From positions 1-44,761 of the forward strand of contig CAYRFC010000003.1 of NCBI GenBank assembly GCA_964423365.1: a stretch of DNA of 44,761 bases, read 5' to 3'. The stretch is from an uncultured Oscillospiraceae bacterium (GTDB lineage: Bacteria > Bacillota > Clostridia > Oscillospirales > Ruminococcaceae). This document shows positions 19,711 through 40,247 of this stretch, piece after piece (positions within the stretch are counted from its first letter, which is position 1; every line of letters begins with the position of its first letter). Both the position numbers and the translations under genes were made by a program. The notes under the pieces were generated by a model. That model saw nothing but the letters and a program-made list of their open reading frames with translations. It had not been told where the DNA came from and made no database searches.

Positions 19711-20799
19711 TCAATATTTGGCCGCGCTGGAGTTCAGGTACTTCTTCACCATCAGGGCCACCTTGAACACGATGGCGTCATCGAACTCGCGCAGATCCAG
19801 CCCGGTGAGCTTCTTGATTTTTTCCAGCCGGTACACCAGGGTATTGCGGTGCACAAACAGGCCGCGGCTGGTCTCACTTACATTGAGGTTGTTCTCAAAA
19901 AAGCGCTGGATGGTGAACAGGGTCTCCTCGTCCAGGCTGTCGATGCTGCCCTGGTTGAACACCTCTTTGAGGAACATCTCGCACAGGGTGGTGGGCAGCT
20001 GGTAGATGAGCCGGGCGATGCCCAGATGGTTGTAGCTGATGATGGGCTGCTCATTGTCGAACACCTTGCCCACTTCCAGGGCAATCTGGGCCTCCTTGAA
20101 GCTGGCGGAGAGGTCTTTGATGTTGGAGATGGGGGTACCGATGCCCACCACGGCTTTGATATAGTGCTCGCCGTTCAGGGTATCCACAATGGAAGCCGCC
20201 AGCTTCTCCACGTCTTTTTCGTCTATTCCACGCCGTATTTCCTTCACCAGTACGGTGTCGGTTTCGCTGGCGTTGAAGATAAAATCCTTCTGTTTGTCTG
20301 GGAAAAGGCCGCTCACCACCTCAAAGGCGGAGATATCGGTGCTGCTGACCACCCGGATGAGCAGCACCACCCGGGCCACATCGGTGGCGAAGTGCAGCTC
20401 CCGCGCCTTGGCAAAGATATCGCCGGGCAGGATATTTTCCAGCACCACATTTTTGATAAAATTGGATTTGTCAAATTTTTCGTCGTGATATTGCAAAATA
20501 TTTTGCAGGCTGAAGGCCAGCAGGGCCGCCGTTTTGGCCGCCGGGGCACCCTCTCCCTGCACAAAAGCCGCATAGTTGCCCCCGCCGTCGGAGGGGAACA
20601 CATGGTAGCTGGCCCCATTTTTCACAAAGCCGCCGTCCTCGGTCTCGGCCAGCAGCTCCACCAGCTCGGCATTGGCCTCGCCCACGCGCGCAATGTCGGT
20701 GCAGGAGACGACCACGCCCTCCATGTCCACCACACCGGCCGTTTCGTCCAGCACATCCCGCATCTGATACAGAACACCTTGGAATACCCGGTTCGCCAT
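19711..20799 (-). CDS. CdaR/PucR-family transcriptional regulator
   Basis: 362 aa. C-terminal PucR-type HTH (FVHRNTLVYRLEKIKKLTGLDLREFDDAIVFKVAL). Confidence 0.85.
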   Translation of the reverse strand: MANRVFQGVLYQMRDVLDETAGVVDMEGVVVSCTDIARVGEANAELVELLAETEDGGFVKNGASYHVFPSDGGGNYAAFVQGEGAPAAKTAALLAFSLQNILQYHDEKFDKSNFIKNVVLENILPGDIFAKARELHFATDVARVVLLIRVVSSTDISAFEVVSGLFPDKQKDFIFNASETDTVLVKEIRRGIDEKDVEKLAASIVDTLNGEHYIKAVVGIGTPISNIKDLSASFKEAQIALEVGKVFDNEQPIISYNHLGIARLIYQLPTTLCEMFLKEVFNQGSIDSLDEETLFTIQRFFENNLNVSETSRGLFVHRNTLVYRLEKIKKLTGLDLREFDDAIVFKVALMVKKYLNSSAAKY

Positions 20800-30843: not shown

Positions 30844-30872
30844 TTGTAAAAAAGCCTTTTAGGCTTTACAAT
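30844..30872 (+). promoter_or_regulatory. candidate promoter of the GDPD gene
   Basis: TTGTAA (30844..30849), 17 nt spacer, TACAAT (30867..30872). It would leave a very short leader before GGAGG at 30881. Confidence 0.45.
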
Positions 30873-30894
30873 GAGAGACAGGAGGATTGACTCT

Positions 30895-31731
30895 ATGTTT
30901 TTGACCATTCTGACCCTGCTCTGTGCGCTGGCATTGCTGCTGGCGTTCCTGCTGCTGCCCGGCGAGAGCAGCCCGGAGCAGCGGGAGCCCTTTTGGCATG
31001 CCAACATCGCCCACCGGGGGCTGCACCGCAAGGACGGCTCCCTGCCCGAAAATAGCCTGGCGGCCTTCACCGCCGCCTGTGACGCCGGCTACGGCATAGA
31101 GCTGGATTTGCGCCTCTGCGGGGACGGCGAGGTGGTGGTGTTCCACGACGAGACCCTGGAGAGGCTGTGCGGCGCGCCCGGCCGGGTGGACGAAACCCCG
31201 CTGGAAAAGCTAAAACAATTGCCCCTGCTGGGGGGCGAGCAGCACATTCCCACCCTGCGCGAGGTGCTGGACAAGGTGCAGGGGCGGGTGCCGCTGGTTT
31301 TGGAGCTAAAAAACGGGGGAGACTACAAGACCCTCTGCGAAAAAAGCTGGCGCATCCTGCGCCGCTACGACGGCGATATCTGCGTGGAGAGCTTCGACCC
31401 CCGCATTCTGCGCTGGTTCCGGAAAAACGTGCCGGGCCTGCTGCGCGGGCAGCTGGCCGCCCCGCCCCACACGCTGAAGCAGGGCATACAGGGGCTGGCG
31501 GTGGGCTGGCTTTTCACCAACTGCCTCTGCCGCCCGCAGTTCATCGCCTACCAAAAGGGCCCCCGCAGCCCGCTGGTGTGGCTGGCCAGCCGCTTTGCCA
31601 TGCGGGTGGTGTGGACCGCCCGCCCCGGCGATGATTTGGCCGAGCTGGAAGGGGACAACGACGCCGTGATTTTCGAGTTTTACACCCCCCAGCCCTACTA
31701 TAACCCCGAGGACAGCAGCGGGGAGTTTTAG
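30895..31731 (+). CDS. glycerophosphodiester phosphodiesterase family protein, membrane-anchored
   Basis: N-terminal TM helix, then GDPD motifs HRG, ENSL, ELDL and FHD. ATG 30895 lies 9 nt after GGAGG. Confidence 0.85.
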   Translation: MFLTILTLLCALALLLAFLLLPGESSPEQREPFWHANIAHRGLHRKDGSLPENSLAAFTAACDAGYGIELDLRLCGDGEVVVFHDETLERLCGAPGRVDETPLEKLKQLPLLGGEQHIPTLREVLDKVQGRVPLVLELKNGGDYKTLCEKSWRILRRYDGDICVESFDPRILRWFRKNVPGLLRGQLAAPPHTLKQGIQGLAVGWLFTNCLCRPQFIAYQKGPRSPLVWLASRFAMRVVWTARPGDDLAELEGDNDAVIFEFYTPQPYYNPEDSSGEF

Positions 31732-31744
31732 TCTACAACTGTTT

Positions 31745-33367
31745 TTATAGAATCAAATCCAGCTTATAGGCAATGCGCAGCTGCAGCTGCACCTCCACAT
31801 CGTTCAAATCCAGCTCCAGCATTTTTTCCACCTTGGCCAGGCGGTATACCGCCGTGTTGTAGTGGGTGTGCAGCTGCTTTGCGGTTTGCAGGGTGTTGCA
31901 GCCGGTTTCCAGCCAGGTGCGCAGGGTGTCTACCAGGGCGCTTTTGTGCTGCTTGTCGTAACTTTTTAGGGGGCCCAGGCAACGCTCGCACAGGCGGGCA
32001 ACAGCCTCGTCCTCCGGCAGCAGGGCCAGCAGGTAGAGAATGCCCAGCTTATCGTAGGTGATGGCCTGCTCCCGCAGGCCGCAGCGGCTGCTGATTTGAC
32101 TGATTTTTTTGGCCTGCTGGTAGGCCTCCGCCATGCTCTGCACGGGGTAAGGGTCGCTGATGCAAAAGCTCATCTCCCCCTTGTCCATGATGTAGTTCAG
32201 CTTTTTGGTGAGGGTGGCCAGCTCCTGCAAAATGGGCCCGCCCGCCTCCCGGTGCTCCACCACCAAAATCAGCTTGCCCTCCAGCACATAGAACATGATG
32301 TCCGGGTTCAAATTACGAATGATATTTCGTATGATATTCACATCTCTCTGCACAAAGTCCACACCGCCCGGCTCGGTGTTCAGGTTCACAATGGCCACCC
32401 GGTACTTGCCCTCCGCCTGCAGGCGGTAGTCCTCGGCCTGGGCGGCCACGCAGATGCTCACCGCGTCACCCAAGCTGCCCGAGAGCCAGTCCTCCATGAA
32501 CTGCATCTTGTATTTCCGGCGTATCTTTTTCACAGAGAGGGCGTTCTTCATCTCCAGGGCCAGAATGTGGCTGATGCGGCTGAGGATGACCTGGTCTATG
32601 TTCCGCAGCGGGCCGTAATATTCCAGCAGCACTATGCGGATATTGCTGTGCCCGCTGGCCCCAAAAAAGTGCACCGGGATGCGTTTCCCCTGCCCCAGGC
32701 TGAGGCCGTGGCGGCTGCTGCCGCGGTAGAGCTGCTTCATCAGCTCCTCCTGCATGCTCACCGAGAGCAGGCCCCGGCTTTTGGGGGTGACAATCAGGTC
32801 TCCCTCGCTGTCAAAAATCATCACCGGGTTGCCCATCATCTCCTCCACCACATGCAGGCACTGCTCGGGGCTCTCCTCCTTCCAAAGGGCGTCCAAAAGC
32901 TGCTCCATGCGGTCCTGCACATGGCGAAAGGCCAGGGTTTCACAGTTCAGAATGGCCTCCATGCTCTCGTGCACAATGTTGGCAAACACTGCCGCCATGG
33001 GCAGCTGAATGAGGGGAAATTCCAGCGCCTGGGCCTGCTGCACCACCCGCTGGGGCAGGCCGTCGCGGAAGCGGCGGGGCTTGAGGCAAAGCGCCACCGC
33101 CCCCTTTTCCTGCAGGCTGGCCAGCTGCGCCACCAGGGCCGCCTCATCCTCGCGGAAGGCATAGCCCGAGCTGATGACCAGCTCGTCCCGGCCCACCCAA
33201 TTCACCAGATTTGGCTCCTCCACCACATTGGTGCGGGCCACTTTTTTTTGCAGGCAGCCCCCGCCCGCCAAAAGTTCCGCCCCGGCCATAGAGCCCAGGT
33301 GCAATAAATCATCCAAAGAGAAATACACATCGGCATCCGCGGTGGCCACGGGGGAAGGCTTTGGCAT
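31745..33367 (-). CDS. PucR-family transcriptional regulator
   Basis: 540 aa. PucR-type C-terminal HTH (TAKQLHTHYNTAVYRLAKVEKMLELDL) with a large N-terminal sensor region. Divergent from the PTS operon. Confidence 0.85.
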   Translation of the reverse strand: MPKPSPVATADADVYFSLDDLLHLGSMAGAELLAGGGCLQKKVARTNVVEEPNLVNWVGRDELVISSGYAFREDEAALVAQLASLQEKGAVALCLKPRRFRDGLPQRVVQQAQALEFPLIQLPMAAVFANIVHESMEAILNCETLAFRHVQDRMEQLLDALWKEESPEQCLHVVEEMMGNPVMIFDSEGDLIVTPKSRGLLSVSMQEELMKQLYRGSSRHGLSLGQGKRIPVHFFGASGHSNIRIVLLEYYGPLRNIDQVILSRISHILALEMKNALSVKKIRRKYKMQFMEDWLSGSLGDAVSICVAAQAEDYRLQAEGKYRVAIVNLNTEPGGVDFVQRDVNIIRNIIRNLNPDIMFYVLEGKLILVVEHREAGGPILQELATLTKKLNYIMDKGEMSFCISDPYPVQSMAEAYQQAKKISQISSRCGLREQAITYDKLGILYLLALLPEDEAVARLCERCLGPLKSYDKQHKSALVDTLRTWLETGCNTLQTAKQLHTHYNTAVYRLAKVEKMLELDLNDVEVQLQLRIAYKLDLIL

Positions 33368-33448
33368 AAAATTACCTCATTACTTTCCTATATACGTTGT
33401 TTTTTTAATATTTTTTCCGGCCTGCAAAACCATATTTTTCTTTGTGCA

Positions 33449-33477
33449 ATTATACTGGTTTTCCTTCTTCTCTGCAA
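33449..33477 (-). promoter_or_regulatory. sigma-A type promoter of the PucR-family regulator
   Basis: Minus strand reads TTGCAG (33472..33477), 17 nt spacer, TATAAT (33449..33454). Confidence 0.5.
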
Positions 33478-33553
33478 TGGCTTTTGTCCATTTTTAAAAA
33501 TAATTTATAAACTGTTCACAATATACAGCTTGCATTATTGGTGTGGAGTCCTA

Positions 33554-33582
33554 TTGTTTTGTGAGATAGCACTAGGTATAAT
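33554..33582 (+). promoter_or_regulatory. sigma-A type promoter of the PTS operon
   Basis: TTGTTT (33554..33559), 17 nt spacer, TATAAT (33577..33582), about 70 nt upstream of the HPr start. Confidence 0.55.
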
Positions 33583-33654
33583 GGCAACAGATGGAAACTG
33601 GCCCAGAAGCCCCGGCCACCGCGGGGAAAGCCGAAAAAAAGGGGAGGCGCGAGA

Positions 33655-33912
33655 GTGGAAAAGTATGAATATGTGGTGCAAAGTGAATTGGGCATGCACG
33701 CAAGGCCAGCGGGCCAGTTTGTGAAATTGGCCACACGGCGCCGCTCGGTGATTGAGATTTCCAAAGGGGAAAAGAAAGTGAATGTCAACCGCATTCTGGC
33801 TGTGATGGGGCTGGGAATTCACCAGGGCGACCGGGTGGAGTTCACGGTTACCGGCGAGGATGAGGCCGAAACGCTGGACGAGCTGAAGGCGATATGTGAG
33901 GAAAGCCTGTAG
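33655..33912 (+). CDS. ptsH: phosphocarrier protein HPr (His15 present, position 46 is Arg)
   Basis: 85 aa, GTG start 7 nt after GGAGG. ELGMHARPAG places His at residue 15. KKVNVNRILAVMGLGI aligns without gaps to KTVNLKSIMGVMSLGI. Confidence 0.9.
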   Translation: MEKYEYVVQSELGMHARPAGQFVKLATRRRSVIEISKGEKKVNVNRILAVMGLGIHQGDRVEFTVTGEDEAETLDELKAICEESL

Positions 33913-33993
33913 CCGTGTTGCTGTATATTGGGTAAACCTGTAGGCAACGGGCCTGGCCCGGGGCCACTTGATACAAATGGAGGGACCTTAGCT

Positions 33994-34764
33994 ATGAGAA
34001 GGATGGGAAAAATTTTTAGACCGGACGGCAAGACCGTGATTGTGGCCATGGACCATGGCATGAGCATGCCCGTAAACCCCGCGCTGGACAAGACCGGCGA
34101 GATTTTGAAGGCCGTGGCCGCCGGTGGGGCCGACGCCATTCTCACCACCTTTGGGGTGGCGAAAAAGTACCAGAGGGAGCTGGACGGCATGGCCCTGATG
34201 CTGCGGGCCGACAGCGGCTACTCCTGCCTGGGCAAGGGCGATGAGGGCCCCGAGCTGTTCTTCACCGTGGAGGACGCCCTGCGCCTGGGCGCAGATGCCG
34301 TGGTGTGCATGGGCTTCCCCGGCATTCCAGACGAAACACACTGCATGAGCAACCTCTCTGCCCTGGTGGCCCAGGGCCGGGAATGGGGGGTGCCGGTGAT
34401 GGCCGAGATGCTGCCCGGCGGCTTCTCAAACGACATCCCGAACTCGGTGGAGAACCTCACCCTCTCGGCCCGCATTGGCTGCGAGTATGGCGCCGACATC
34501 ATCAAAACCTCTTACAACGGCACCCCGGAGGAATTCCGGAAGGTGGTGGAGGCCAGCTACCAGCCGGTGGTGGTGCTGGGCGGCGAGAAGACCAGCGACC
34601 TGGCCTCTCTGTTCCAGTGCATTGAAGACGCCATGACGGCGGGTGCTTCGGGCGTGGCCATTGGCCGGAACGTCTGGCGCCACAGCGACCCCGAAAAAGT
34701 AACCCGTGCCCTGGTGGATTTGGTACATGGCGGCAAAAAAGCGGCCGACATCCAGGGCCTGTAA
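33994..34764 (+). CDS. class I (Schiff-base) aldolase, DhnA/FbaB/LsrF-type (DeoC/LacD superfamily)
   Basis: 256 aa. VIVAMDHG, GADAILT and the lysine motif ADIIKTSYNG are typical of class IA FBP-aldolase / ADH-synthase / LsrF relatives. ATG 33994 lies 10 nt after GGAGG. Confidence 0.8.
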   Translation: MRRMGKIFRPDGKTVIVAMDHGMSMPVNPALDKTGEILKAVAAGGADAILTTFGVAKKYQRELDGMALMLRADSGYSCLGKGDEGPELFFTVEDALRLGADAVVCMGFPGIPDETHCMSNLSALVAQGREWGVPVMAEMLPGGFSNDIPNSVENLTLSARIGCEYGADIIKTSYNGTPEEFRKVVEASYQPVVVLGGEKTSDLASLFQCIEDAMTAGASGVAIGRNVWRHSDPEKVTRALVDLVHGGKKAADIQGL

Positions 34765-34776
34765 GGGAGAGGCAGC

Positions 34777-35826
34777 ATGATTCCTGAGAAAATGAAGGGC
34801 ATTGTCATCACCGGGCCCAAGCAGGCCGAGGTGAGGGAGCTGAGCACCCCGAGACCCCAGCGGGGCGAGGTGCTGGTGAAGGTGGAGCGTGCACTCATCT
34901 GCACCTGGGAGCAGCGCATCTTTGGCGGCGGCGACGTGGCCCTGCCCTATGTGCCGGGGCATGAGATTTCCGGCACGGTGGCCGCCATTGGGGAGGACAG
35001 CTCCTGCAATGTGGAGGTGGGCCAGCGTGTGGTGGTGAAAACCTACGACAGCTGCGGCCAGTGCGAGGCCTGCTACCGCGGGGCCGACAACCTGTGCACC
35101 GGCCAGGCACGCAAGCGTTTTTATGACGGCATTCCCGGCACCGGCGGCTTCGCGCAGTATCTTGCCATTGGCAGCGAGCGGGTGTTCCCCCTGCCCGGCC
35201 AAAGCGCCAACCTGGACACCGCCGCCTTTGCCGAGCCCATCTCCTGCTGCCTGCACAGCCTGGAGCAGGCCGGCATTGAGATGGGCGAGGATGTGGTGAT
35301 TGTGGGCGGGGGCATCATGGGCCAGCTGCACAACCTGCTGGCCAAGAAAAAGGGCGCCCGCACCATTCTGGTGGAGCTGGACAAGGCCCGCCGGGAGATG
35401 GCCCAAAAAATGGGGGCCGATGTGGTGCTGGACCCCGCCGAGGGCGACCCCATTGCCGCCATCATGGAGCTGACCGAAAAACGCGGCGCACACGTGTGCT
35501 TCTTCACCGTAAATGTGCTGCCCCTGGCCCAGAGCTACCTGGAGTGCCTGGCCAAACGCGGGCGGATGGTCTACTACGGCTCCTTCCACCCAAACGGCCC
35601 CATCGAGATGAACCCAAACCAGATTCACTACAGCGAAAAGGTGATTACCGGCTCCTTCAGCCCCACCGCCAAGGGCTTCTGGGCGGCAGCCCGTCTGCTG
35701 GGCTATGGCCTCATTGACGTGGAGCCCTTCCTTACAGAGCGCTATGCCATGGCCGACTGCCAGAGGGCCCTGGAACGGGCGTGCAGCCCCGAAACCTACC
35801 GTGTATTGATTGATTTGACCGAATAA
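34777..35826 (+). CDS. Zn-dependent medium-chain dehydrogenase/reductase (polyol or sugar-phosphate dehydrogenase-like)
   Basis: 349 aa. Catalytic Zn ligands (LICTW Cys, GHEISG). Structural Zn CGQCEACYRGADNLC. GGGIMG nucleotide-binding motif. Confidence 0.85.
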   Translation: MIPEKMKGIVITGPKQAEVRELSTPRPQRGEVLVKVERALICTWEQRIFGGGDVALPYVPGHEISGTVAAIGEDSSCNVEVGQRVVVKTYDSCGQCEACYRGADNLCTGQARKRFYDGIPGTGGFAQYLAIGSERVFPLPGQSANLDTAAFAEPISCCLHSLEQAGIEMGEDVVIVGGGIMGQLHNLLAKKKGARTILVELDKARREMAQKMGADVVLDPAEGDPIAAIMELTEKRGAHVCFFTVNVLPLAQSYLECLAKRGRMVYYGSFHPNGPIEMNPNQIHYSEKVITGSFSPTAKGFWAAARLLGYGLIDVEPFLTERYAMADCQRALERACSPETYRVLIDLTE

Positions 35827-35859
35827 GGCGGCAGGCCGCAGAAGGGAAGGAGTGAAATT

Positions 35860-36273
35860 TTGACGAATCTCATCCTCATCAGCCACGGCGCATTGGCGGC
35901 GGGTATGCGGGAGGCCGCCGAGATGATTCTGGGAGAGCAGGAGCAGATGGCCGTCTTTGGCCTCTACCCCGGCGACACCGGCGACAGCTTTTCTGAAAAA
36001 CTGGAACAGGCCATAGACCAATTTGGCGAGCCCGGAAACACCCTGATTCTGGCCGACCTGCCCAGCGGCACCCCCTCCAACGCCTCCATGCTGATGGTTC
36101 TCAAGCGCGGGGTGCACGCCCTGTCGGGCTGCAACCTGCCCGCCCTGCTGGAAATTTTGACCCTGCGCGCCGAGGTGGGCATGGAAGAACTGCTGGCTGC
36201 CGCATGCGAGGCCGGAAAGCTGGGAATCGTAAGCGCCGATGACATCATCAAAGAAAGGGAGGCGAATGTATGA
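35860..36273 (+). CDS. PTS mannose-family EIIA component
   Basis: 137 aa. LILISHGALAAG with the phosphorylatable His near residue 9. TTG start behind GGGAAGGAG. Confidence 0.9.
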   Translation: MTNLILISHGALAAGMREAAEMILGEQEQMAVFGLYPGDTGDSFSEKLEQAIDQFGEPGNTLILADLPSGTPSNASMLMVLKRGVHALSGCNLPALLEILTLRAEVGMEELLAAACEAGKLGIVSADDIIKEREANV

Positions 36274-36743
36274 GTGCCGTATTTTTCCGCATTGATGACC
36301 GCCTGATTCACGGGCAGGTGATGACGGGATGGTCGAAGATTCACCAGACCAACCGCATCTTTGTGGTGGACGACAAGACCGCCAGCGACCAGTTCCTCTG
36401 CCAGGTGATGAAGATGTCGGTTCCCAAGGAATACGACGTGTCCATCCTCAGCGTGGCCGACGCCATCACCGCCATACAGAACGACCCGCCGGACAGGCGC
36501 ACCATGGTGCTGACCAAGACCCCCTCGGTGATGCAGGCCCTGCTGGAGGGCGGCGTGGCCATGAAGGAGCTGAACCTGGGCGGCATGGGCTACCTGCCGG
36601 GCCGCAAGGTGGTGCTGCGCAACATTCAGGTTTCCCCCGAAGAGCTGGAGCAGCTCAAGCAGATTGCGGCAAAGGGCGTGCGCGTCTTCTGCCAGATTGT
36701 ACCGGACGGCAAAAGCATTGAACTGGACAAGGTGAAGCTATAG
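36270..36743 (+). CDS. PTS mannose/sorbose-family EIIB component
   Basis: 157 aa. FRIDDRLIHGQV with the active His. ATG overlaps the EIIA stop (ATGA). Confidence 0.9.
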   Translation: MSAVFFRIDDRLIHGQVMTGWSKIHQTNRIFVVDDKTASDQFLCQVMKMSVPKEYDVSILSVADAITAIQNDPPDRRTMVLTKTPSVMQALLEGGVAMKELNLGGMGYLPGRKVVLRNIQVSPEELEQLKQIAAKGVRVFCQIVPDGKSIELDKVKL

Positions 36744-36763
36744 GGTTTCTTCTGTTCTGTTGG

Positions 36764-36787
36764 CACCCGGATGCGGGGCATCCGGTG
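36764..36787 (+). other. GC-rich hairpin inside the EIIB-EIIC spacer
   Basis: CACCCGGATGC-GGG-GCATCCGGTG: 10 bp with one bulged C, no clean T-run. Lies in the 94-nt gap within an otherwise tightly packed operon. Confidence 0.5.
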
Positions 36788-36837
36788 GCGATATCCGTAT
36801 CTTTGTGTGTGTATCAAATTGTGGGAGGTATGTGTAA

Positions 36838-37617
36838 ATGACATGGTGGCAAGCACTACTGCTGGGGCTTCTCTATTTTCTGTCAGACGCCCCCTTCTTC
36901 TTCGGCGAGGGCTATTACGTCCTCCAGCGGCCCATCGTGGCCGGTTTCCTCACAGGCCTTGTGATGGGCGACCCCGTCACAGGCACCATCATCGGCGCAA
37001 CCATCAACCTGATTTACCTGGGGCACCTCAACGTGGGCGGCTCCATGCCCTCCGACATGGCGCTGGCCGGCTATATCGGCACCGCCATTGCCCTGGCCAC
37101 CAACGTGAGCACCGAGGTGGCCCTGGCCCTGGCCGTGCCGCTGGGCCTGCTGGGCACCGTGTGGTGGGTGGGCCGCATGAGCATCGACTCGGTCTTCGTG
37201 CACTGGGCCGACCGCTATGCCGAGAAGGGCAATGTGAAGGGCGTGATGGCCATGAACTGGCTGCCCAGCGCCATCATGATGCTGTTTTTCAAGGTATTGG
37301 TCACCTTTGTCATCACCTTTGCGGGCATCGGCCTTGTGGAAAGCTTCCTGAACGTCATCCAAAACACCGGCATTCTGCACGGCTTTGAGGTGATTGGCGG
37401 CCTGCTGCCGGCTCTGGGCATCGGCCTGAACCTGCGCGCCATCCTGAAAAAGCAAACCATGCCCTTCCTGCTCATCGGCTTTTTGCTGGTGGCCTACTTC
37501 CAGCTCAGCATCATCGGCGTGGCCCTGTTCGGCCTGGGCTTTGCCCTCATCTACCTGTTCTACAACAAAGACAAAACAGACGACGGCGAGAAGGAGGAAG
37601 TAAGCTATGGCGGATAA
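36838..37617 (+). CDS. PTS mannose-family EIIC component
   Basis: 259 aa polytopic membrane protein with an EIIC-Man-like N-terminus (WQALLLGLLYFL, QRPIVAGFLTGLVMGD). Confidence 0.9.
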   Translation: MTWWQALLLGLLYFLSDAPFFFGEGYYVLQRPIVAGFLTGLVMGDPVTGTIIGATINLIYLGHLNVGGSMPSDMALAGYIGTAIALATNVSTEVALALAVPLGLLGTVWWVGRMSIDSVFVHWADRYAEKGNVKGVMAMNWLPSAIMMLFFKVLVTFVITFAGIGLVESFLNVIQNTGILHGFEVIGGLLPALGIGLNLRAILKKQTMPFLLIGFLLVAYFQLSIIGVALFGLGFALIYLFYNKDKTDDGEKEEVSYGG

Positions 37618-38452
37618 TATTGTGAAAAACGATGCCGGCGCGGGCAAAAAGCTGGATAAGAAGGACATTCGGAAAGCCTACTGGCTGTGGCAGTTCTTCT
37701 CTCACGCCAACTACAACTACGAACGCATGCAGGGCGGCGCCTTCGCCATGTGCATGGCCCCCCTTCTGCAAAAGCTGTACCCCAAAAAGGAGCAGCTGGT
37801 GCAGGGCCTGCAGCGGCACCTTGTGTTCTTCAACACAAACCCGAACGTGGGCACGGTTATCCACGGCGCCACCATCGCCATGGAGGAGGAAAAGGCCGCC
37901 GGGGCCGAAATTTCCGACGAGGCCATCAACGCCATTAAAACCGGCCTGATGGGCCCCATGGCCGGCATTGGCGACGCGCTGGACCAGGGCATCATCATCC
38001 CCCTCATGGTGGCACTGGGCATCAGCCTGGGCGCCACCGGCAACCTCTTTGGCCCGCTGCTGGTTCTCATAGGGCTGCCCATCATCCTCATGGCCATTGC
38101 CTACAACTGCTGGATGACCGGCTACCGCCTGGGCAGCAACGCCATTGGCAGCATGCTGGCGGGCGGGCGGATGAAGCAGATTATCGGCGCAGCCGGTATT
38201 CTGGGCTGCACTGTGATGGGCGGCCTCATCTCCTCCTTTGTCAATTTCCGCACCACCATCGTGTTCAACATCGGCCAGTCCACCTTCGATTTGCAGGCCC
38301 AGTTCTTTGACGCCATCATGCCGAACCTGCTGCCGCTGGGCGTCACCCTGCTCGCCTTCTTCCTGATGAGCAAGAAGCAAATCAGCTCTATGAAGATTCT
38401 GATTGGCCTGGTCATCATCGGCTTCCTGGGCGGCCTGGTGGGCATTTTCTAA
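37607..38452 (+). CDS. PTS mannose-family EIID component
   Basis: 281 aa. Contains the EIID signature FFSHANYNYERMQG. Overlaps the EIIC end by 11 nt. RBS GGAGG. Confidence 0.9.
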   Translation: MADNIVKNDAGAGKKLDKKDIRKAYWLWQFFSHANYNYERMQGGAFAMCMAPLLQKLYPKKEQLVQGLQRHLVFFNTNPNVGTVIHGATIAMEEEKAAGAEISDEAINAIKTGLMGPMAGIGDALDQGIIIPLMVALGISLGATGNLFGPLLVLIGLPIILMAIAYNCWMTGYRLGSNAIGSMLAGGRMKQIIGAAGILGCTVMGGLISSFVNFRTTIVFNIGQSTFDLQAQFFDAIMPNLLPLGVTLLAFFLMSKKQISSMKILIGLVIIGFLGGLVGIF

Positions 38453-38487
38453 AAACAGGCAACACTGCCCGGCACGGGAACGGCCCG

Positions 38488-38535
38488 CCCAAGCAAAATT
38501 TTGAGTCCTCATCATTTTGCTTGGGCCTTTCATTT
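38488..38535 (+). terminator. terminator-like hairpin between EIID and ptsI
   Basis: Perfect 12-bp stem CCCAAGCAAAAT / ATTTTGCTTGGG with a 14-nt loop, followed by CCTTTCATTT (interrupted T-tract). Confidence 0.5.
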
Positions 38536-38570
38536 CCCGCCACACGGCGGCAAAAAAGGTGTGATACCAT

Positions 38571-40190
38571 TTGACAAGCCTGCAAGGAAAAGGGGTGAGC
38601 CGGGGCATTGCCGTGGGCCCCTTGCGGTTTTACCGCCGCAGCCAGCTCTCCATCCAGCGCCAGCCGGCAGCAGACAGCGGGGCGGAAATCCGGCGTTTTG
38701 AAGCGGCCTGCCGGCAGGCACAGGCCGACCTAAGCGTTTTGTATGCCGAAACACGGGAGAAGCTGGGGGAGGAAAACGCCGAGGTCTTTCAGATACACCA
38801 AATGATTTTGGACGACCCCGACCTGCGGGAGGGGGTGGCAGCCATCATAGAGGCGGAATCCGTGTGCGCCGAATATGCCATGGAGCAAACCGCGCAGGCC
38901 TTTGCCAGCGGCTTTGCCGCCCTGGACGACCCCTACATGCAAAGCCGGGCCGCCGACGTGAAAGATGTGGCAGGCCGGGTGCTGCGGCTGCTCTGCGGGG
39001 CGCAGGAGAGCGCCCTGGACGGCGGAGAGCCCTTCATTCTGGCCGCAGACGACCTGGTGCCCAGCGAGACGGCCCGGCTGGACCGCAGCCGGGTGCTGGC
39101 CTTTGCCACCTGTGGCGGCAGCGGCAATTCCCACACCGCCATTTTTGCCCGCACCATGGGCATTCCCGCCATCACCTGCCTGGGGCCCGGCCTGTTGCAG
39201 CAGCCCGAGGGCGCTTTAGCCGGGGCGGATGGAAACACCGGTCTTTTGCTGATAGACCCCGACGCCGAACACCTGGCCCGGCTGCAAGAGGCCGCCGGGG
39301 CCGAGGCCGCACGAAAGCGTGAGGAGGCCCTGTTCCGGGGCCGGGAAACCCGCAGCAAAAGCGGCCAAAAGCTGCTGCTGTGCGCGAACGCAGGCTGCCT
39401 GGCCGATGTGGAGCTGGCGCTGGCCGGGGACGCGGAGGGCATTGGGCTGTTCCGCAGCGAGCTGATTTACCTGGAGCGGGACGACTACCCCGGCGAGGAG
39501 GAGCAGCTGGCCGTGTACCGCGCGGTTTTGGAAAAAATGGAGGGCCGCCCGGTGGTCATCCGCACCCTGGACATCGGGGCCGACAAGCAGGCCGGCTACT
39601 TCGGCCTGCCCGCTGAAGAAAACCCCGCCTTGGGCCTGCGGGCGGTGCGGCTCTGCCTCACAAGGCCGGAGATTTTCCGCACCCAGCTTCGTGCGCTCTA
39701 CCGCGCCTCCCCCCACGGCAAGCTCTCCATTATGGTGCCCATGATAACCTGCGCCGGGGAGCTGCGGCGCTGCAAGGCTCTGGCCGCCGAGGTGCGGGCC
39801 GAGCTTGCCCGCGAGGGCCTGCCCTACTGCGAGGAGGTACCCATCGGGGTGATGATAGAGACCCCCGCCGCCGCCCTGCTGAGTGAGGAACTGGCCCAGG
39901 AGGCCGACTTTTTCAGTGTGGGCACCAATGACCTCACGCAGTATACCCTGGCGCTGGACCGCCAGAACAGCGCCGTGGCCCCCTTTGCCGACCCAGAGCA
40001 CAGAGCCGTGCTGCGGCTGATTGCCCTGGCCGCGGAAAATGCCCACAAGGCCGGCATATGGATAGGCATCTGCGGGGAGCTGGGGGCCGACCCCCGCTTT
40101 ACCGAGGCCTTCCTCGCCATGGGCATCGACGAACTCTCGGTGGTGCCCTCGGCGGTGCTGCCCCTGCGGGCCAGAATCGCCACCTTATAA
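38571..40190 (+). CDS. ptsI: phosphoenolpyruvate-protein phosphotransferase (PTS Enzyme I)
   Basis: 539 aa. GVSRGIAVG N-terminus, active-site GGSGNSHTAIFARTMGIPA, C-terminal CGELGAD. TTG start, so the exact start is uncertain. Confidence 0.93.
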   Translation: MTSLQGKGVSRGIAVGPLRFYRRSQLSIQRQPAADSGAEIRRFEAACRQAQADLSVLYAETREKLGEENAEVFQIHQMILDDPDLREGVAAIIEAESVCAEYAMEQTAQAFASGFAALDDPYMQSRAADVKDVAGRVLRLLCGAQESALDGGEPFILAADDLVPSETARLDRSRVLAFATCGGSGNSHTAIFARTMGIPAITCLGPGLLQQPEGALAGADGNTGLLLIDPDAEHLARLQEAAGAEAARKREEALFRGRETRSKSGQKLLLCANAGCLADVELALAGDAEGIGLFRSELIYLERDDYPGEEEQLAVYRAVLEKMEGRPVVIRTLDIGADKQAGYFGLPAEENPALGLRAVRLCLTRPEIFRTQLRALYRASPHGKLSIMVPMITCAGELRRCKALAAEVRAELAREGLPYCEEVPIGVMIETPAAALLSEELAQEADFFSVGTNDLTQYTLALDRQNSAVAPFADPEHRAVLRLIALAAENAHKAGIWIGICGELGADPRFTEAFLAMGIDELSVVPSAVLPLRARIATL

Positions 40191-40213
40191 GCATTCGTCC
40201 CAAAACGCAAAAA

Positions 40214-40247
40214 AGAAGCTCCCCTGGATGGGGGGCTTCTTTTGTTG
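40214..40247 (+). terminator. rho-independent terminator of the PTS operon
   Basis: AGAAGCTCCCC-TGGAT-GGGGGGCTTCT stem followed by TTTGTTG. An A-run precedes the stem. Confidence 0.8.

Follow-up and report, generated by a model that had tools for sequence, protein, structure and literature searches.

We identified eight adjacent genes in a 44,761-nucleotide stretch of DNA (the window) from an uncultured Oscillospiraceae bacterium. On balance, we read them as a self-sufficient operon of the Man-family PTS type, in which a widespread module that phosphorylates, oxidises and cleaves its substrate is coupled to a PTS. The reaction scheme itself we regard as probable, while ribitol or a ribityl group as the chain that is processed is a tentative suggestion. 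Gene content, catalytic residues, the conserved pairing of two enzymes and the fact that PTS and FGGY kinase exclude each other are observed; in what order the steps occur, where the substrate is oxidised and what the substrate is are inferred.

Eight genes form one operon

The operon consists of eight complete, co-directional open reading frames, which encode HPr, a DhnA-type class I aldolase, a Zn-dependent medium-chain dehydrogenase (MDR), EIIA, EIIB, EIIC and EIID of the Man family, and Enzyme I. The first-pass annotation had claimed such a locus and proposed profile searches, which bear the claim out: each of the eight proteins strongly matches its own, expected family in Pfam. A divergent PucR-family regulator flanks the run on one side and a strong terminator on the other. 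Because the IIA and IIB frames overlap, as do IIC and IID, and the remaining intergenic gaps are short (12-118 nt), the spacing fits a single operon.

The boundaries claimed earlier were recovered as well. The regulator (31745..33367, minus strand) matches the PucR N-domain (1.5e-24), GGDEF_2 (GGDEF-like, 5.9e-08) and HTH_30 (2.8e-19), and a PucR homologue adjoins 25 of the 27 PTS-type relatives described below. A direct reading of the AT-rich intergenic region (33368..33654, plus strand), the putative control region, revealed a promoter-like element: TTGTTT (33554-33559), a 17-nt spacer and TATAAT (33577-33582). It is a plausible sigma-70 promoter candidate. The promoter scan did not call it because the -35 hexamer matches at only three of six positions, and an Rfam search of the control region matched no family. 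The GTG start of HPr is preceded by the Shine-Dalgarno sequence AGGGGAGG. At the operon end lies the intrinsic terminator (40211..40243, plus strand), the best in the scanned region: its 14-bp stem contains 7 G-C pairs, the loop has 5 nt and the tail is T-rich.

All phosphorelay residues of the PTS chain, encoded on the plus strand throughout, are intact. The HPr-type phosphocarrier (33655..33912; PF00381, 5e-25) has His15, the mannose-family EIIA (35860..36273; PF03610, 1e-20) has its phosphorylatable histidine at position 9 (ISHG), and the mannose/sorbose-family EIIB (36270..36743; PF03830, 5e-47) has His14 in RIDDRLIHGQV. They are joined by the membrane subunits EIIC (mannose/sorbose family, 36838..37617; PF03609, 3e-71) and EIID (mannose family, 37607..38452; PF03613, 1e-93). 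Enzyme I (38571..40190, 539 aa), the PEP-protein phosphotransferase, has three Pfam PEP-utiliser domains, scores 528 bits against TIGR01417 (cut-off 342) and retains the active-site residues His188 (GNSHTAI) and Cys501 (CGE). In NCBIfam, the PTS subunits come closest to Aga and galactosamine components, without reaching any cut-off.

An alignment of the HPrs from these loci shows the motifs GMHARP and NRILAVM. Position 46 of the window HPr is Arg. Because this Arg replaces the regulatory Ser46, the protein is a dedicated carrier and not the general ptsH of the cell. The first-pass annotation had described general PTS proteins bracketing a substrate-specific EII. The bracketing is real, and among the relatives Enzyme I accompanies the PTS in 22 of 27 and HPr in 25 of 27, but the HPr of the window is not a general one.

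The aldolase and the dehydrogenase

The aldolase (33994..34764, plus strand; PF01791, 3e-31) is a class I (Schiff-base) enzyme of the DhnA/archaeal type. Although its reading frame opens at TTG 33928, the start is most likely ATG 33994, because homologues are about 256 aa long and a GGAGGG Shine-Dalgarno sequence lies just upstream of this ATG. The best PDB match is MJ0400 (2QJG, 8e-42), and all scores against NCBIfam equivalogs are below cut-off. Schiff-base Lys171 and Asp20 are kept, as are the phosphate loops GG and GRN. Tyr146, Arg148 and Trp144 of the Thermoproteus FBP aldolase are invariantly Leu, Gly and Glu in the family.

It had been considered at first reading that this might simply be the housekeeping FBP aldolase. 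The enzyme has Leu in place of the catalytic Tyr146 and Gly in place of the second-phosphate Arg148, and we therefore rejected that identity. Loss of this Arg is consistent with a substrate that has a single phosphate, and a 1-phospho-2-ketose is predicted.

The MDR (34777..35826, plus strand; PF08240 and PF00107, ~1e-23) has the catalytic residues Cys42, His62, Glu63 and Glu153 and the structural residues Cys93, Cys96, Cys99 and Cys107, all at least 95% conserved among 55 family members. In NCBIfam and the PDB, it is most similar to IolM, Tdh and the dehydrogenases of L-iditol and L-idonate, with every score under the cut-off. The protein groups with these polyol dehydrogenases and not with aldehyde reductases. 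This placement favours an option raised in the first-pass annotation, that a polyol phosphate is oxidised first; alternatively, the MDR could reduce the aldehyde product. An acidic residue follows the second strand of the nucleotide-binding fold, which suggests NAD as the cofactor.

A fixed core takes up alternative uptake modules

We compared the best 80 GTDB species-genome loci, which, with the window itself and a further locus from Logan, make 82. The gene set recurs in 27 loci with an aldolase at least 53% identical, from Oscillospiraceae, Christensenellaceae, other Bacillota and Anaerolineae. Hence, the arrangement is not due to chance. A homologue of the MDR lies at most 7 kb from the aldolase in 74 of the 82 loci (window and Logan locus included). 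The first-pass annotation had asked whether aldolase, MDR and Man-family PTS co-occur elsewhere, and with which extra genes; in the wider family the extra genes often belong to N-heterocycle catabolism, and many relatives' loci are embedded among them. Near the window locus and its nearest relatives (L005-L012) we found no N-heterocycle genes.

Among the 82, 36 loci carry a Man-PTS, and in none of them does an FGGY kinase gene lie within 9 kb. In contrast, 27 of the 46 loci without a PTS, mostly with ABC transporters, have one (Fisher p = 1.4e-9), and many of the kinase-free loci among these 46 are truncated contigs. PTS and FGGY kinase are thus mutually exclusive around the same aldolase-MDR pair, and therefore the PTS stands in for transporter plus kinase. 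This agrees with the kinase-independent route deduced at first reading.

Farther clades (43-44% aldolase identity) show the same alternatives, aldolase-MDR-FGGY or SorC-IIA-IIB-IICD-aldolase-MDR. In a neighbour-joining tree of the aldolases, PTS-linked, PotD-type-ABC-linked and CUT1-ABC-linked genes are interleaved. Hence, uptake modules have been exchanged repeatedly around one chemistry. Aldolase and MDR are a fixed core that takes up alternative uptake modules, and the window locus belongs to a large family that spans several phyla.

Proposed route and alternatives

In the route that we propose, Enzyme I, the dedicated HPr, EIIA and EIIB would relay the phosphate of PEP to a substrate entering via EIIC and EIID. 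The substrate would end in a polyol chain, -CHOH-CHOH-CHOH-CH2OH, and receive the phosphate on the primary hydroxyl at the end of that chain. The Zn-dependent MDR would then oxidise the secondary alcohol beside the new phosphate, which yields a 1-phospho-2-ketose. The aldolase, through a Schiff base at Lys171, would cleave this ketose into an unphosphorylated aldehyde and DHAP, which would feed glycolysis. The likely sequence is polyol 5-phosphate to the 4-keto compound to DHAP and a C2 aldehyde. With free ribitol or another pentitol the aldehyde would be glycolaldehyde; with the D-ribityl chain of an N-heterocycle (flavin, lumazine) it would be an N-formylmethyl heterocycle. The first-pass annotation had proposed direct Schiff-base cleavage to a triose phosphate and a C3 fragment. 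Release of the triose phosphate is upheld, but the other product is likelier to be a C2 aldehyde, derived from a pentitol or ribityl chain, than a C3 fragment. No glycolaldehyde-processing enzyme is encoded downstream in the operon, and in the literature we found no report that tests the aldolase-dehydrogenase pair biochemically.

Several clues bear on the substrate. In the Spirochaete loci, the CUT1 binding protein has a match at 1e-101 to PDB 5IAI, a ribitol complex, but the 43% identity does not fix the CUT1 ligand, and the Rhizobium orthologue of this binding protein lies in a more complex gene cluster. A BMP-linked sister clade has 47-50% aldolase identity. Beside its aldolase-MDR pair in Thermotogaceae and Kosmotogaceae, all eight BMP binding proteins match riboflavin-bound RfuA (4IIL, 3e-47), and all eight carry Y27/T82/Y157/W189, the predicted marker of riboflavin binders in that clade (Deka et al.). 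Five of these BMP loci also contain an FGGY gene; human FGGY phosphorylates ribitol (PMC13576159). In C. scindens, riboflavin induces a neighbourhood of kinase, class I aldolase and Zn-ADH, and side-chain-cleaved flavins are released (PMC13492142). Finally, a 42%-identical aldolase clade lies in DHAP-shunt-like clusters (Bmp ABC transporter, PNP-family phosphorylase, IF-2B/MtnA-family isomerase, amidohydrolase), a context that suggests pentulose-1-phosphate substrates. These clues stem from relatives with other transporters or from the 47-50% sister clade, and none comes from the PTS subunits.

The same genes could also process a free ketose, with the MDR acting last. The PTS would import a ketopentose, L-sorbose, tagatose or a deoxy-ketose and phosphorylate it at C1, the aldolase would release DHAP and an aldehyde, and the MDR would reduce that aldehyde (glycolaldehyde, L-glyceraldehyde or acetaldehyde), as the alcohol dehydrogenase of the DHAP shunt does. 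No isomerase would be needed, and the DHAP-shunt-like clusters of the 42% clade contain an SDR that might reduce the aldehyde. Moreover, the FGGY kinases fuculokinase and rhamnulokinase act on C1 of ketoses, and sorbose-1-P is a product of Man-family PTSs. However, the MDR is nearest to secondary-alcohol/polyol dehydrogenases (Ahr and AdhP score below IolM, Tdh and IdnD), the CUT1 binding protein is similar to a binder of a polyol (ribitol), and free ketoses are scarce relative to how widespread the module is. We consider this order of events unlikely. Less likely again is the earlier proposal that a hexitol phosphate or ketohexose-1-phosphate is cleaved into DHAP and a C3 aldehyde (glyceraldehyde). 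The chemistry is the same and compatible with the Pfam and NCBIfam data, and the MDR is weakly similar to galactitol-1-P and sorbitol-type dehydrogenases. Yet none of the surveyed loci has a conserved gene for a triose kinase or for glycerol handling, and the only ligand clues recovered concern a C5 chain (ribitol, riboflavin, pentulose-1-P clusters).

The resemblance to LsrF (3e-25) raises another possibility, thiolase/transferase chemistry on a diketo-phosphate made by the MDR (for example, from a 1-deoxy-pentulose or AI-2-like compound), which would give DHAP and an acyl unit. Both proteins are without the Tyr aligned to Thermoproteus Tyr146, LsrK belongs to the FGGY kinases, and the AI-2 kinase model weakly matches the FGGY genes in these loci. 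But the LsrF model scores 130 bits (cut-off 297), below ADH-synthase and FBA-type models, equivalents of LsrG, LsrB and LsrR were not found in the loci with mapped genes, and a large subfamily of bacterial aldolases shares the Glu/Leu signature. This makes LsrF-like chemistry very improbable. The ordinary reading, a glycolytic class I FBP aldolase, an unrelated dehydrogenase and general ptsH/ptsI beside a hexose EII, is barely credible. Some public sources do name family members 'class I fructose-bisphosphate aldolase', and several lineages with the locus may be poor in other PTSs, a scarcity that would account for the co-location of Enzyme I and HPr. Against it stand the missing Arg148 and Tyr146, an FBA equivalog score of 139 bits (cut-off 430), the HPr without Ser46, and an aldolase that adjoins the same MDR in several phyla while swapping between PTS and kinase.

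Comparison with known systems

The window aldolase shares the TIM barrel (PF01791), the Schiff-base Lys and the phosphate-binding loops with archaeal class IA FBP aldolase, the ADH synthase MJ0400 and E. coli LsrF. At the positions of the catalytic Tyr and the distal phosphate Arg it has other residues, and it falls below every equivalog cut-off.

The flavin-induced neighbourhood fin occurs in the anaerobic gut Clostridia Clostridium scindens and Faecalicatena fissicatena. It is proposed to release a triose from the ribityl chain and to leave a C2 stub (hydroxyethylflavin or lumichrome). A RibF-like flavokinase phosphorylates, uptake presumably occurs through RibU, and the enzymes are without biochemical characterisation (PMC13492142, 2026). 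Fin and the window pathway both combine phosphorylation with an aldolase of class I and a Zn-dependent alcohol dehydrogenase, but in the window the Man-family PTS would perform both uptake and phosphorylation. Genomes of C. scindens, Faecalicatena and Dorea are absent from the best 80 GTDB loci. Hence, the fin aldolase is not a close orthologue, and the two aldolases are probably distant homologues at best.

The DHAP shunt for 5'-deoxyadenosine and methylthioadenosine reportedly cleaves a pentulose-1-phosphate into DHAP and a C2 aldehyde and includes an alcohol dehydrogenase, as our proposed route would. Its aldolase is said to be class II, whereas the window aldolase is class I. The ketose-1-phosphate of the shunt is reportedly made by a phosphorylase or kinase, in either case together with an MtnA-type isomerase; PNP or IF-2B genes occur in none of the 84 loci examined.

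In the sor regulons of Klebsiella and L. casei, a Man-family PTS yields ketose-1-phosphate, and the MDR SorE acts next to the phosphate. SorE works reductively and requires the SDR SorD; SorG of L. casei is aldolase-like, reportedly class II-type. The window shares the Man-family PTS and the MDR with these regulons, and an aldolase with L. casei sor, but SorD is absent. We see no evidence for sorbose as the substrate.

A further comparison is with the D-ribitol regulon of Lactobacillus casei BL23, whose Man-type PTS is named in the title of Bourand et al. 2013 (J Bacteriol 195:2652). The pentitol reportedly arrives as the 5-phosphate and is oxidised by an NAD-dependent dehydrogenase, said to be a Zn-type MDR, so that a kinase is unnecessary. 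Oxidation is reportedly at C2, remote from the phosphate, and leads through ribulose-5-P to an epimerase and phosphoketolase, under a DeoR/GlpR-type regulator. Both systems combine a Man-type PTS with a polyol-phosphate dehydrogenase, the latter putative in the window, and are kinase-free. In contrast to L. casei, the window has no epimerase or phosphoketolase, its regulator is PucR-type and Enzyme I and HPr lie inside the operon. The contrast that the first-pass annotation drew with described Man-family regulons thus needs correcting, since a polyol-phosphate dehydrogenase with a Man-type PTS is reportedly known. The window also differs by its Schiff-base aldolase, which implies oxidation next to the phosphate and a subsequent cleavage to DHAP.

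The operon encodes a complete phosphotransferase system

The operon consists of eight complete open reading frames in one direction (33655–40190, forward strand). They encode HPr, a PF01791 aldolase, a zinc-dependent MDR dehydrogenase, the mannose-family components EIIA, EIIB, EIIC and EIID, and Enzyme I (EI). A PucR-family regulator is divergent to them (31745–33367, reverse strand). Pfam and NCBIfam recover every family that the first-pass annotation had named for these genes. Little space separates the genes, with overlaps at IIA/IIB and IIC/IID and gaps of 12–118 nt elsewhere. A promoter-like site (TTGTTT-17-TATAAT) can be read in the AT-rich region upstream, the ribosome-binding sites are good, and the best terminator of the scanned region follows EI (40211–40243, forward strand). 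Hence the gene layout proposed earlier stands except for the start of the aldolase gene. This gene probably starts at ATG 33994 (forward strand) and not at TTG 33928, because homologues are about 256 amino acids long and a Shine-Dalgarno sequence lies ahead of ATG 33994.

All four mannose-specific components are present (PF03610, PF03830, PF03609 and PF03613 for IIA to IID) and score far over the gathering scores. Together with a phosphorylatable histidine in IIA (His10 type, here His9 in ISHG) and in IIB (His15 type, here His14 in RIDDRLIHGQV), they form a Man-family Enzyme II (TC 4.A.6). EI has the domains PF05524, PF00391 and PF02896, reaches 528 bits in TIGR01417 (cut-off 342) and keeps its active residues His188 and Cys501. 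With the catalytic His15 of HPr also kept (GMHARP motif), the phosphorelay residues in the window are complete.

The HPr gene distinguishes two subtypes of the operon. If HPr is encoded upstream of the aldolase, residue 46 is arginine; if it is encoded between IID and EI, as in the related loci L014–L048, residue 46 is serine. In the window, in its relatives L005–L012 and in L038, position 46 is arginine (NRILAVM), and the regulatory Ser46 of the KSIM/L-type motif is missing. Ser46 of HPr is the target of HprK/P in the CcpA circuit. The arginine in its place argues, as judged from the sequence, that the HPr of the window is a dedicated phosphocarrier and does not serve as the regulatory HPr of this circuit.

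Of the closest 27 PTS-type loci, a set that takes in those from Anaerolineae, 22 encode EI and 25 encode HPr. Thus the Man-PTS travels as a complete unit with EI and HPr. The operon is a compact, portable PTS (EI, HPr and EII) with an HPr devoid of Ser46, and it informs the spread of PTS modules into lineages such as Anaerolineae.

The flanks of the window are housekeeping genes (AsnRS, MutY, KsgA, ProAB, dTDP-rhamnose synthesis, FtsEX, ArgRS, Ddl). They hold neither a functional clue nor a sign of mobile elements, and the G+C content of the locus is unremarkable throughout. Rfam at the gathering threshold gives no riboswitch match in the window and seven representative loci, and a regular-expression search for the conserved core of the FMN riboswitch finds none in 84 loci. 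A second PucR-type regulator (19711–20799, reverse strand) has GGDEF_2 and HTH_30 only, without the N-terminal PucR domain, and adjoins ftsE/ftsX-like genes. An open reading frame with a hydrophobic N-terminus (30871–31731, forward strand), which separates a two-component system from the PucR gene, resembles a glycerophosphodiester phosphodiesterase by appearance; it is not conserved beside related loci. We rejected the antisense open reading frames of up to 563 amino acids, which recur in relatives (for example 34426–36117, reverse strand), as high-G+C artefacts over real genes.

A conserved enzyme pair with interchangeable uptake modules

A word-indexed protein search yielded more than 2000 relatives of the aldolase, and HMMER, run exhaustively over 1.84 billion cluster representatives, yielded 139 at E <= 1e-30, whose cluster names led to unnamed or MAG proteins only. 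Scanning one genome per GTDB species gave 80 loci, whose gene content we compared by tblastn and by clustering all open reading frames. The genome of the window is rich in G+C and Oscillospiraceae-like, and the closest public locus is L005 from an Oscillospiraceae MAG, with an aldolase that is 96% identical. When the window and one extra Logan locus are added to the GTDB loci, 74 of the resulting 82 loci have an MDR homologue no more than 7 kb away from the aldolase. The conservation of this pair extends from Bacillota to Chloroflexota, Spirochaetota and Thermotogota, and the pair is combined with at least four interchangeable uptake systems.

The first uptake module, consisting of PucR, HPr, Man-PTS and EI, occurs in Oscillospiraceae, Pseudoflavonifractor, Christensenellaceae, other Bacillota and Flexilinea/Anaerolineaceae. 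Cultured carriers include Pseudoflavonifractor gallinarum DSM 107456, Pseudoflavonifractor sp. MSJ-37, 524-17 and HCP28S3_F10, and Oscillibacter valericigenes An890. The second module combines a PotD/PhnS-like ABC transporter with an FGGY kinase, often together with DUF3604 and two creatininase-family genes. Spirochaetota carry the third (GntR, FGGY and a CUT1 ABC transporter). Thermotogaceae and Kosmotogaceae carry the fourth, a BMP-type ABC transporter that is accompanied by FGGY in five of eight loci.

FGGY kinases and the PTS exclude each other. Within 9 kb, FGGY is found in 0 of 36 PTS-linked loci compared to 27 of the 46 others (p = 1.4e-9). The uptake types are interleaved in a neighbour-joining tree of the aldolase, where loci with the PotD-type ABC transporter and FGGY, for instance, form the sister group of the Pseudoflavonifractor PTS loci. 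Several genomes hold two loci, each with a different uptake module. Distant clades (43–44% identity) repeat the same alternatives, either aldolase, MDR and FGGY or the order SorC-IIA-IIB-IICD-aldolase-MDR. Exclusion, interleaving and repetition in distant clades are therefore strong comparative evidence that the PTS provides the phosphorylation that a kinase provides in other loci, and that MDR and aldolase must act on a phosphorylated compound in the PTS version. A route independent of a kinase was the central proposal made from the sequence of the window, and the comparison of genomes agrees with it; aldolase, MDR and Man-PTS also co-occur in other loci of Bacillota and Anaerolineaceae.

A search of plasmid collections with the aldolase returned distant matches only (at most 44% identity), and the Klebsiella and Embleya contexts from it are uninformative on this aldolase family. 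The Klebsiella pneumoniae locus L086 (CP125156.1, 944171–960935) encodes a DhnA-type aldolase of 38% identity, which carries the annotation DAHP aldolase, next to a GlpP-like antiterminator, an FGGY kinase, an SDR, a 2-hydroxyacid dehydrogenase and a PTS IIC. This cluster of aldolase, kinase and dehydrogenase also looks uncharacterised.

Predicted reactions of the aldolase and the dehydrogenase

The aldolase is a PF01791 TIM barrel (3e-31 in Pfam) with the class I (Schiff-base) fold of the DhnA/archaeal type. Its nearest solved structures are MJ0400 (2QJG, 8e-42), the class IA FBP aldolase of Thermoproteus tenax and LsrF. The Schiff-base Lys171 (ADIIKTSY), Asp20 and the phosphate loops GG196–197 and GRN224–226 are invariant in an alignment of 22 sequences (A1) and align with MJ0400 and the Thermoproteus enzyme. 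Three archaeal residues are replaced: the catalytic Tyr146 by Leu140, Arg148 of the distal FBP phosphate by Gly142 and Trp144 by an invariant glutamate. This Glu/hydrophobic signature is common to a large bacterial subfamily. Models of FBP aldolase and ADH synthase stay under their cut-offs (NF040816 139 against 430, TIGR01949 188 against 299, PRK07226 213 against 241).

With Lys171 and the phosphate loops kept and Tyr146 and Arg148 lost, the protein is predicted to be a DHAP-type Schiff-base aldolase for a monophosphate. A glycolytic or housekeeping FBP aldolase and an ADH synthase are rejected on the replacement of Tyr146 and Arg148 and the lack of any equivalog-level score, in line with the earlier expectation of something other than the housekeeping enzyme. 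LsrF, the P-HPD thiolase, does not fit either: NF006081 scores 130 against 297, and the loci with mapped genes show no context of LsrK, LsrG, LsrB or LsrR.

The dehydrogenase (PF08240 and PF00107) has both the zinc sites and the nucleotide-binding fold (GxGxxG) of its family. Across 55 sequences the ligands of the catalytic zinc (Cys42, His62, Glu63, Glu153) and of the structural zinc (Cys93, Cys96, Cys99, Cys107) are conserved. An acidic residue follows the second strand of the Rossmann fold, which suggests NAD as the coenzyme. The invariant basic residues give no decisive sign of a phosphate site, since Arg47 and Arg205 are probably coenzyme contacts. The best matches, all of them below cut-off, are polyol and secondary-alcohol dehydrogenases (IolM, Tdh and those for L-iditol and L-idonate) and not aldehyde reductases. 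No characterised MDR specificity is reached among the NCBIfam equivalogs, whose scores are far under cut-off (at best 160 against 450 for IolM).

Family chemistry and gene content are fitted most simply by three steps, a scheme we consider likely. The PTS would phosphorylate a terminal primary hydroxyl of the substrate. MDR would then oxidise the secondary alcohol adjoining the phosphate to a 1-phospho-2-ketose, which the aldolase would cleave to DHAP and an aldehyde. Once assigned, the pair would define a conversion of a polyol chain to DHAP that is free of kinase and isomerase, and many genes named 'class I fructose-bisphosphate aldolase' or 'zinc-binding alcohol dehydrogenase' could be annotated.

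The main rival explanation starts from a ketose. It retains the same aldolase step and turns MDR into an aldehyde reductase, in the fashion of the DHAP shunt. However, the family affinities of MDR lie with polyol and secondary-alcohol dehydrogenases, and the CUT1 binding protein is of a polyol type; both speak against this rival. A route that borrows the phosphorylase and isomerase of the DHAP shunt is rejected, because we sought PNP and MtnA (IF-2B) genes in the loci of the aldolase–MDR family and found neither.

Ribitol or a ribityl chain as candidate substrate

Three clues, independent of one another, suggest a ribitol-like C5 chain. In the Spirochaete loci, the CUT1 binding protein is similar to a protein solved in complex with ribitol (PDB 5IAI, 1e-101). 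All eight BMP binding proteins of Thermotogaceae and Kosmotogaceae match the riboflavin-bound RfuA of Treponema pallidum (4IIL, 3e-47), and all eight have Tyr27, Thr82, Tyr157 and Trp189, exactly the residues of the Thermotoga/Mesotoga/Kosmotoga clade predicted to bind riboflavin (Deka et al.). The third clue is the flavin-induced neighbourhood (fin) of Clostridium scindens, which breaks riboflavin down to lumichrome anaerobically (PMC13492142). It encodes a RibF-like kinase (finB), a class I aldolase (finC) and a Zn-dependent alcohol dehydrogenase (finD), and its authors propose that finBCD free a triose from the ribityl chain (PMC13492142). Faecalicatena fissicatena, with a short version of the neighbourhood, produces hydroxyethylflavin (PMC13492142). 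Begley and co-workers remark of this 'C2-C3 fragmentation' route that enzymes have yet to be assigned to it (PMC12746152). Human FGGY phosphorylates ribitol (PMC13576159), which fits a C5 chain.

The best-supported reading is that a ribitol or ribityl chain is converted to DHAP and a C2 aldehyde; the identity of the chain as ribitol or ribityl is tentative and falls somewhat short of probable. Cleavage of a D-ribityl 5-phosphate oxidised at C4 would yield DHAP together with glycolaldehyde when ribitol is the source, or together with an N-formylmethyl heterocycle when the source is a flavin or lumazine. Should the chain be ribityl, the pathway would bear on the destruction of riboflavin and related MAIT-cell ligands by gut anaerobes, and on what feeds N-heterocycle catabolic clusters in gut and digester bacteria.

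In the Thermotogaceae and Kosmotogaceae MAGs (L062–L068, L079, L082) the RfuA-like proteins adjoin MDR and aldolase in 8/8 loci, FGGY is present in five, and RpiR in some. The predicted riboflavin importers of these families may serve catabolism, instead of or beside vitamin salvage.

Three Logan contigs (L089–L091) carry a 42% identical class I aldolase (P0124, 8001–8801 in L089), clustered with an IF-2B/MtnA-family isomerase, a PNP-family phosphorylase, a Bmp ABC transporter, an SDR, a Cupin_5 protein and an amidohydrolase. The described DHAP shunt uses a class II aldolase. The cluster resembles such a shunt, one that would act on 5'-deoxy or methylthio nucleosides with a class I enzyme in place of the class II aldolase. 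Its substrate should be a 5-substituted pentulose-1-phosphate, which fits a C5 chain.

Nitrogen-heterocycle genes around related loci

Many relatives, of every uptake type, lie beside or within operons for N-heterocycle catabolism. TRZ/ATZ-family amidohydrolases occur in 22 loci, and xanthine-dehydrogenase-type Mo/FAD/FeS subunits, PreA-like reductases and dihydropyrimidinases are among the neighbours too, as are M19 and M20 peptidases, a YgeW-like carbamoyltransferase, creatininase-family hydrolases and DUF3604 proteins. One or more N-heterocycle gene clusters are present in 16 of the 36 PTS-type loci, and 14 have two or more. The Flexilinea PTS operon has xanthine-dehydrogenase sets on either side, and in Oscillibacter valericigenes aldolase and MDR form a single co-directional run with N-heterocycle genes.

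A plasmid locus of Rhizobium leguminosarum (L088; pRLN4, NZ_CP025016.1, 50375–69625) encodes an orthologue of the ribitol-type binding protein, at 43% identity to the CUT1 protein of the Spirochaete loci, together with an FGGY kinase, a BtpA/SgcQ TIM-barrel protein, an SDR and a DeoR regulator. The cluster also contains two isochorismatase-family hydrolases, the allophanate hydrolase AtzF and further amidohydrolases, and looks like an aerobic counterpart that joins polyol-type uptake to urea-type ring breakdown. The surroundings of the relatives and L088 thus favour, for some members of the family at least, a polyol chain attached to a nitrogen heterocycle. The window and L005–L012 are stand-alone, without N-heterocycle genes nearby; their substrate may be a free pentitol, or they may excrete the remainder of a heterocycle.

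Two further arrangements were observed. In the Clostridia MAG ELA206 (L022, 979–2871) a gene of the formylmethanofuran:H4MPT formyltransferase (FTR) family, unexpected in Clostridia, follows a TRZ/ATZ amidohydrolase and a second MDR and lies upstream of MDR, aldolase and a BMP ABC transporter. In a Logan contig (L092, SRR22746113, 8001–11918) aldolase, MDR and FGGY are directly followed by FMN_red (NADPH-dependent FMN reductase family), opposite genes for CT_A_B, CT_C_D, a DAO-family oxidase and an amidohydrolase, a weak additional hint of flavins or N-heterocycles.

A bolder version of the ribityl reading, which we regard as unlikely, is that the Man-PTS imports and phosphorylates an N-ribityl heterocycle for catabolism and not for cofactor supply. 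Candidates would be riboflavin, ribityl-lumazine, a deazaflavin such as FO or a related compound. Group translocation would phosphorylate the 5'-hydroxyl and yield FMN or an analogue, MDR would form the 4'-keto compound, and the aldolase would take C3'–C5' as DHAP, leaving an N-formylmethyl or N-hydroxyethyl heterocycle. This remainder would be excreted in the stand-alone loci and degraded elsewhere by the adjacent xanthine dehydrogenase, amidohydrolase and dihydropyrimidinase genes. If true, the long-known, unexplained 'C2'-C3' fragmentation' in anaerobic riboflavin breakdown would gain an enzymatic basis, and the substrate range of the PTS would extend to vitamins and cofactor precursors.

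Comparison with known systems

The locus does not belong to the sor, aga, dga, gfr or lev regulons; it fails membership in each, just as the first-pass annotation had maintained. The closest characterised regulon is one that the annotation did not list, the D-ribitol regulon of Lactobacillus casei BL23. It is said to combine a Man-type PTS with a ribitol-5-phosphate 2-dehydrogenase, a ribulose-5-phosphate 3-epimerase, a xylulose-5-phosphate phosphoketolase and a DeoR/GlpR repressor. A Man-PTS with a polyol-phosphate dehydrogenase is thus an already known combination. The window operon shares the PTS and the MDR with this system. In contrast, it has no epimerase, phosphoketolase or DeoR regulator, and the proposed position of oxidation differs. 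In the literature we found no description of the aldolase branch, its coupling to a PTS or its distribution over several phyla, and no biochemical study of the aldolase–MDR pair.

The closest functional analogue is fin, itself biochemically uncharacterised and compared here by its description. Motifs of RibF-type flavokinases are absent from all open reading frames of 84 loci, and no fin-carrying genus is among the 80 closest GTDB loci. At the level of families, the aldolase and the zinc-dependent dehydrogenase of the window operon match those described for fin; for phosphorylation, fin uses a flavokinase and the window operon a PTS.
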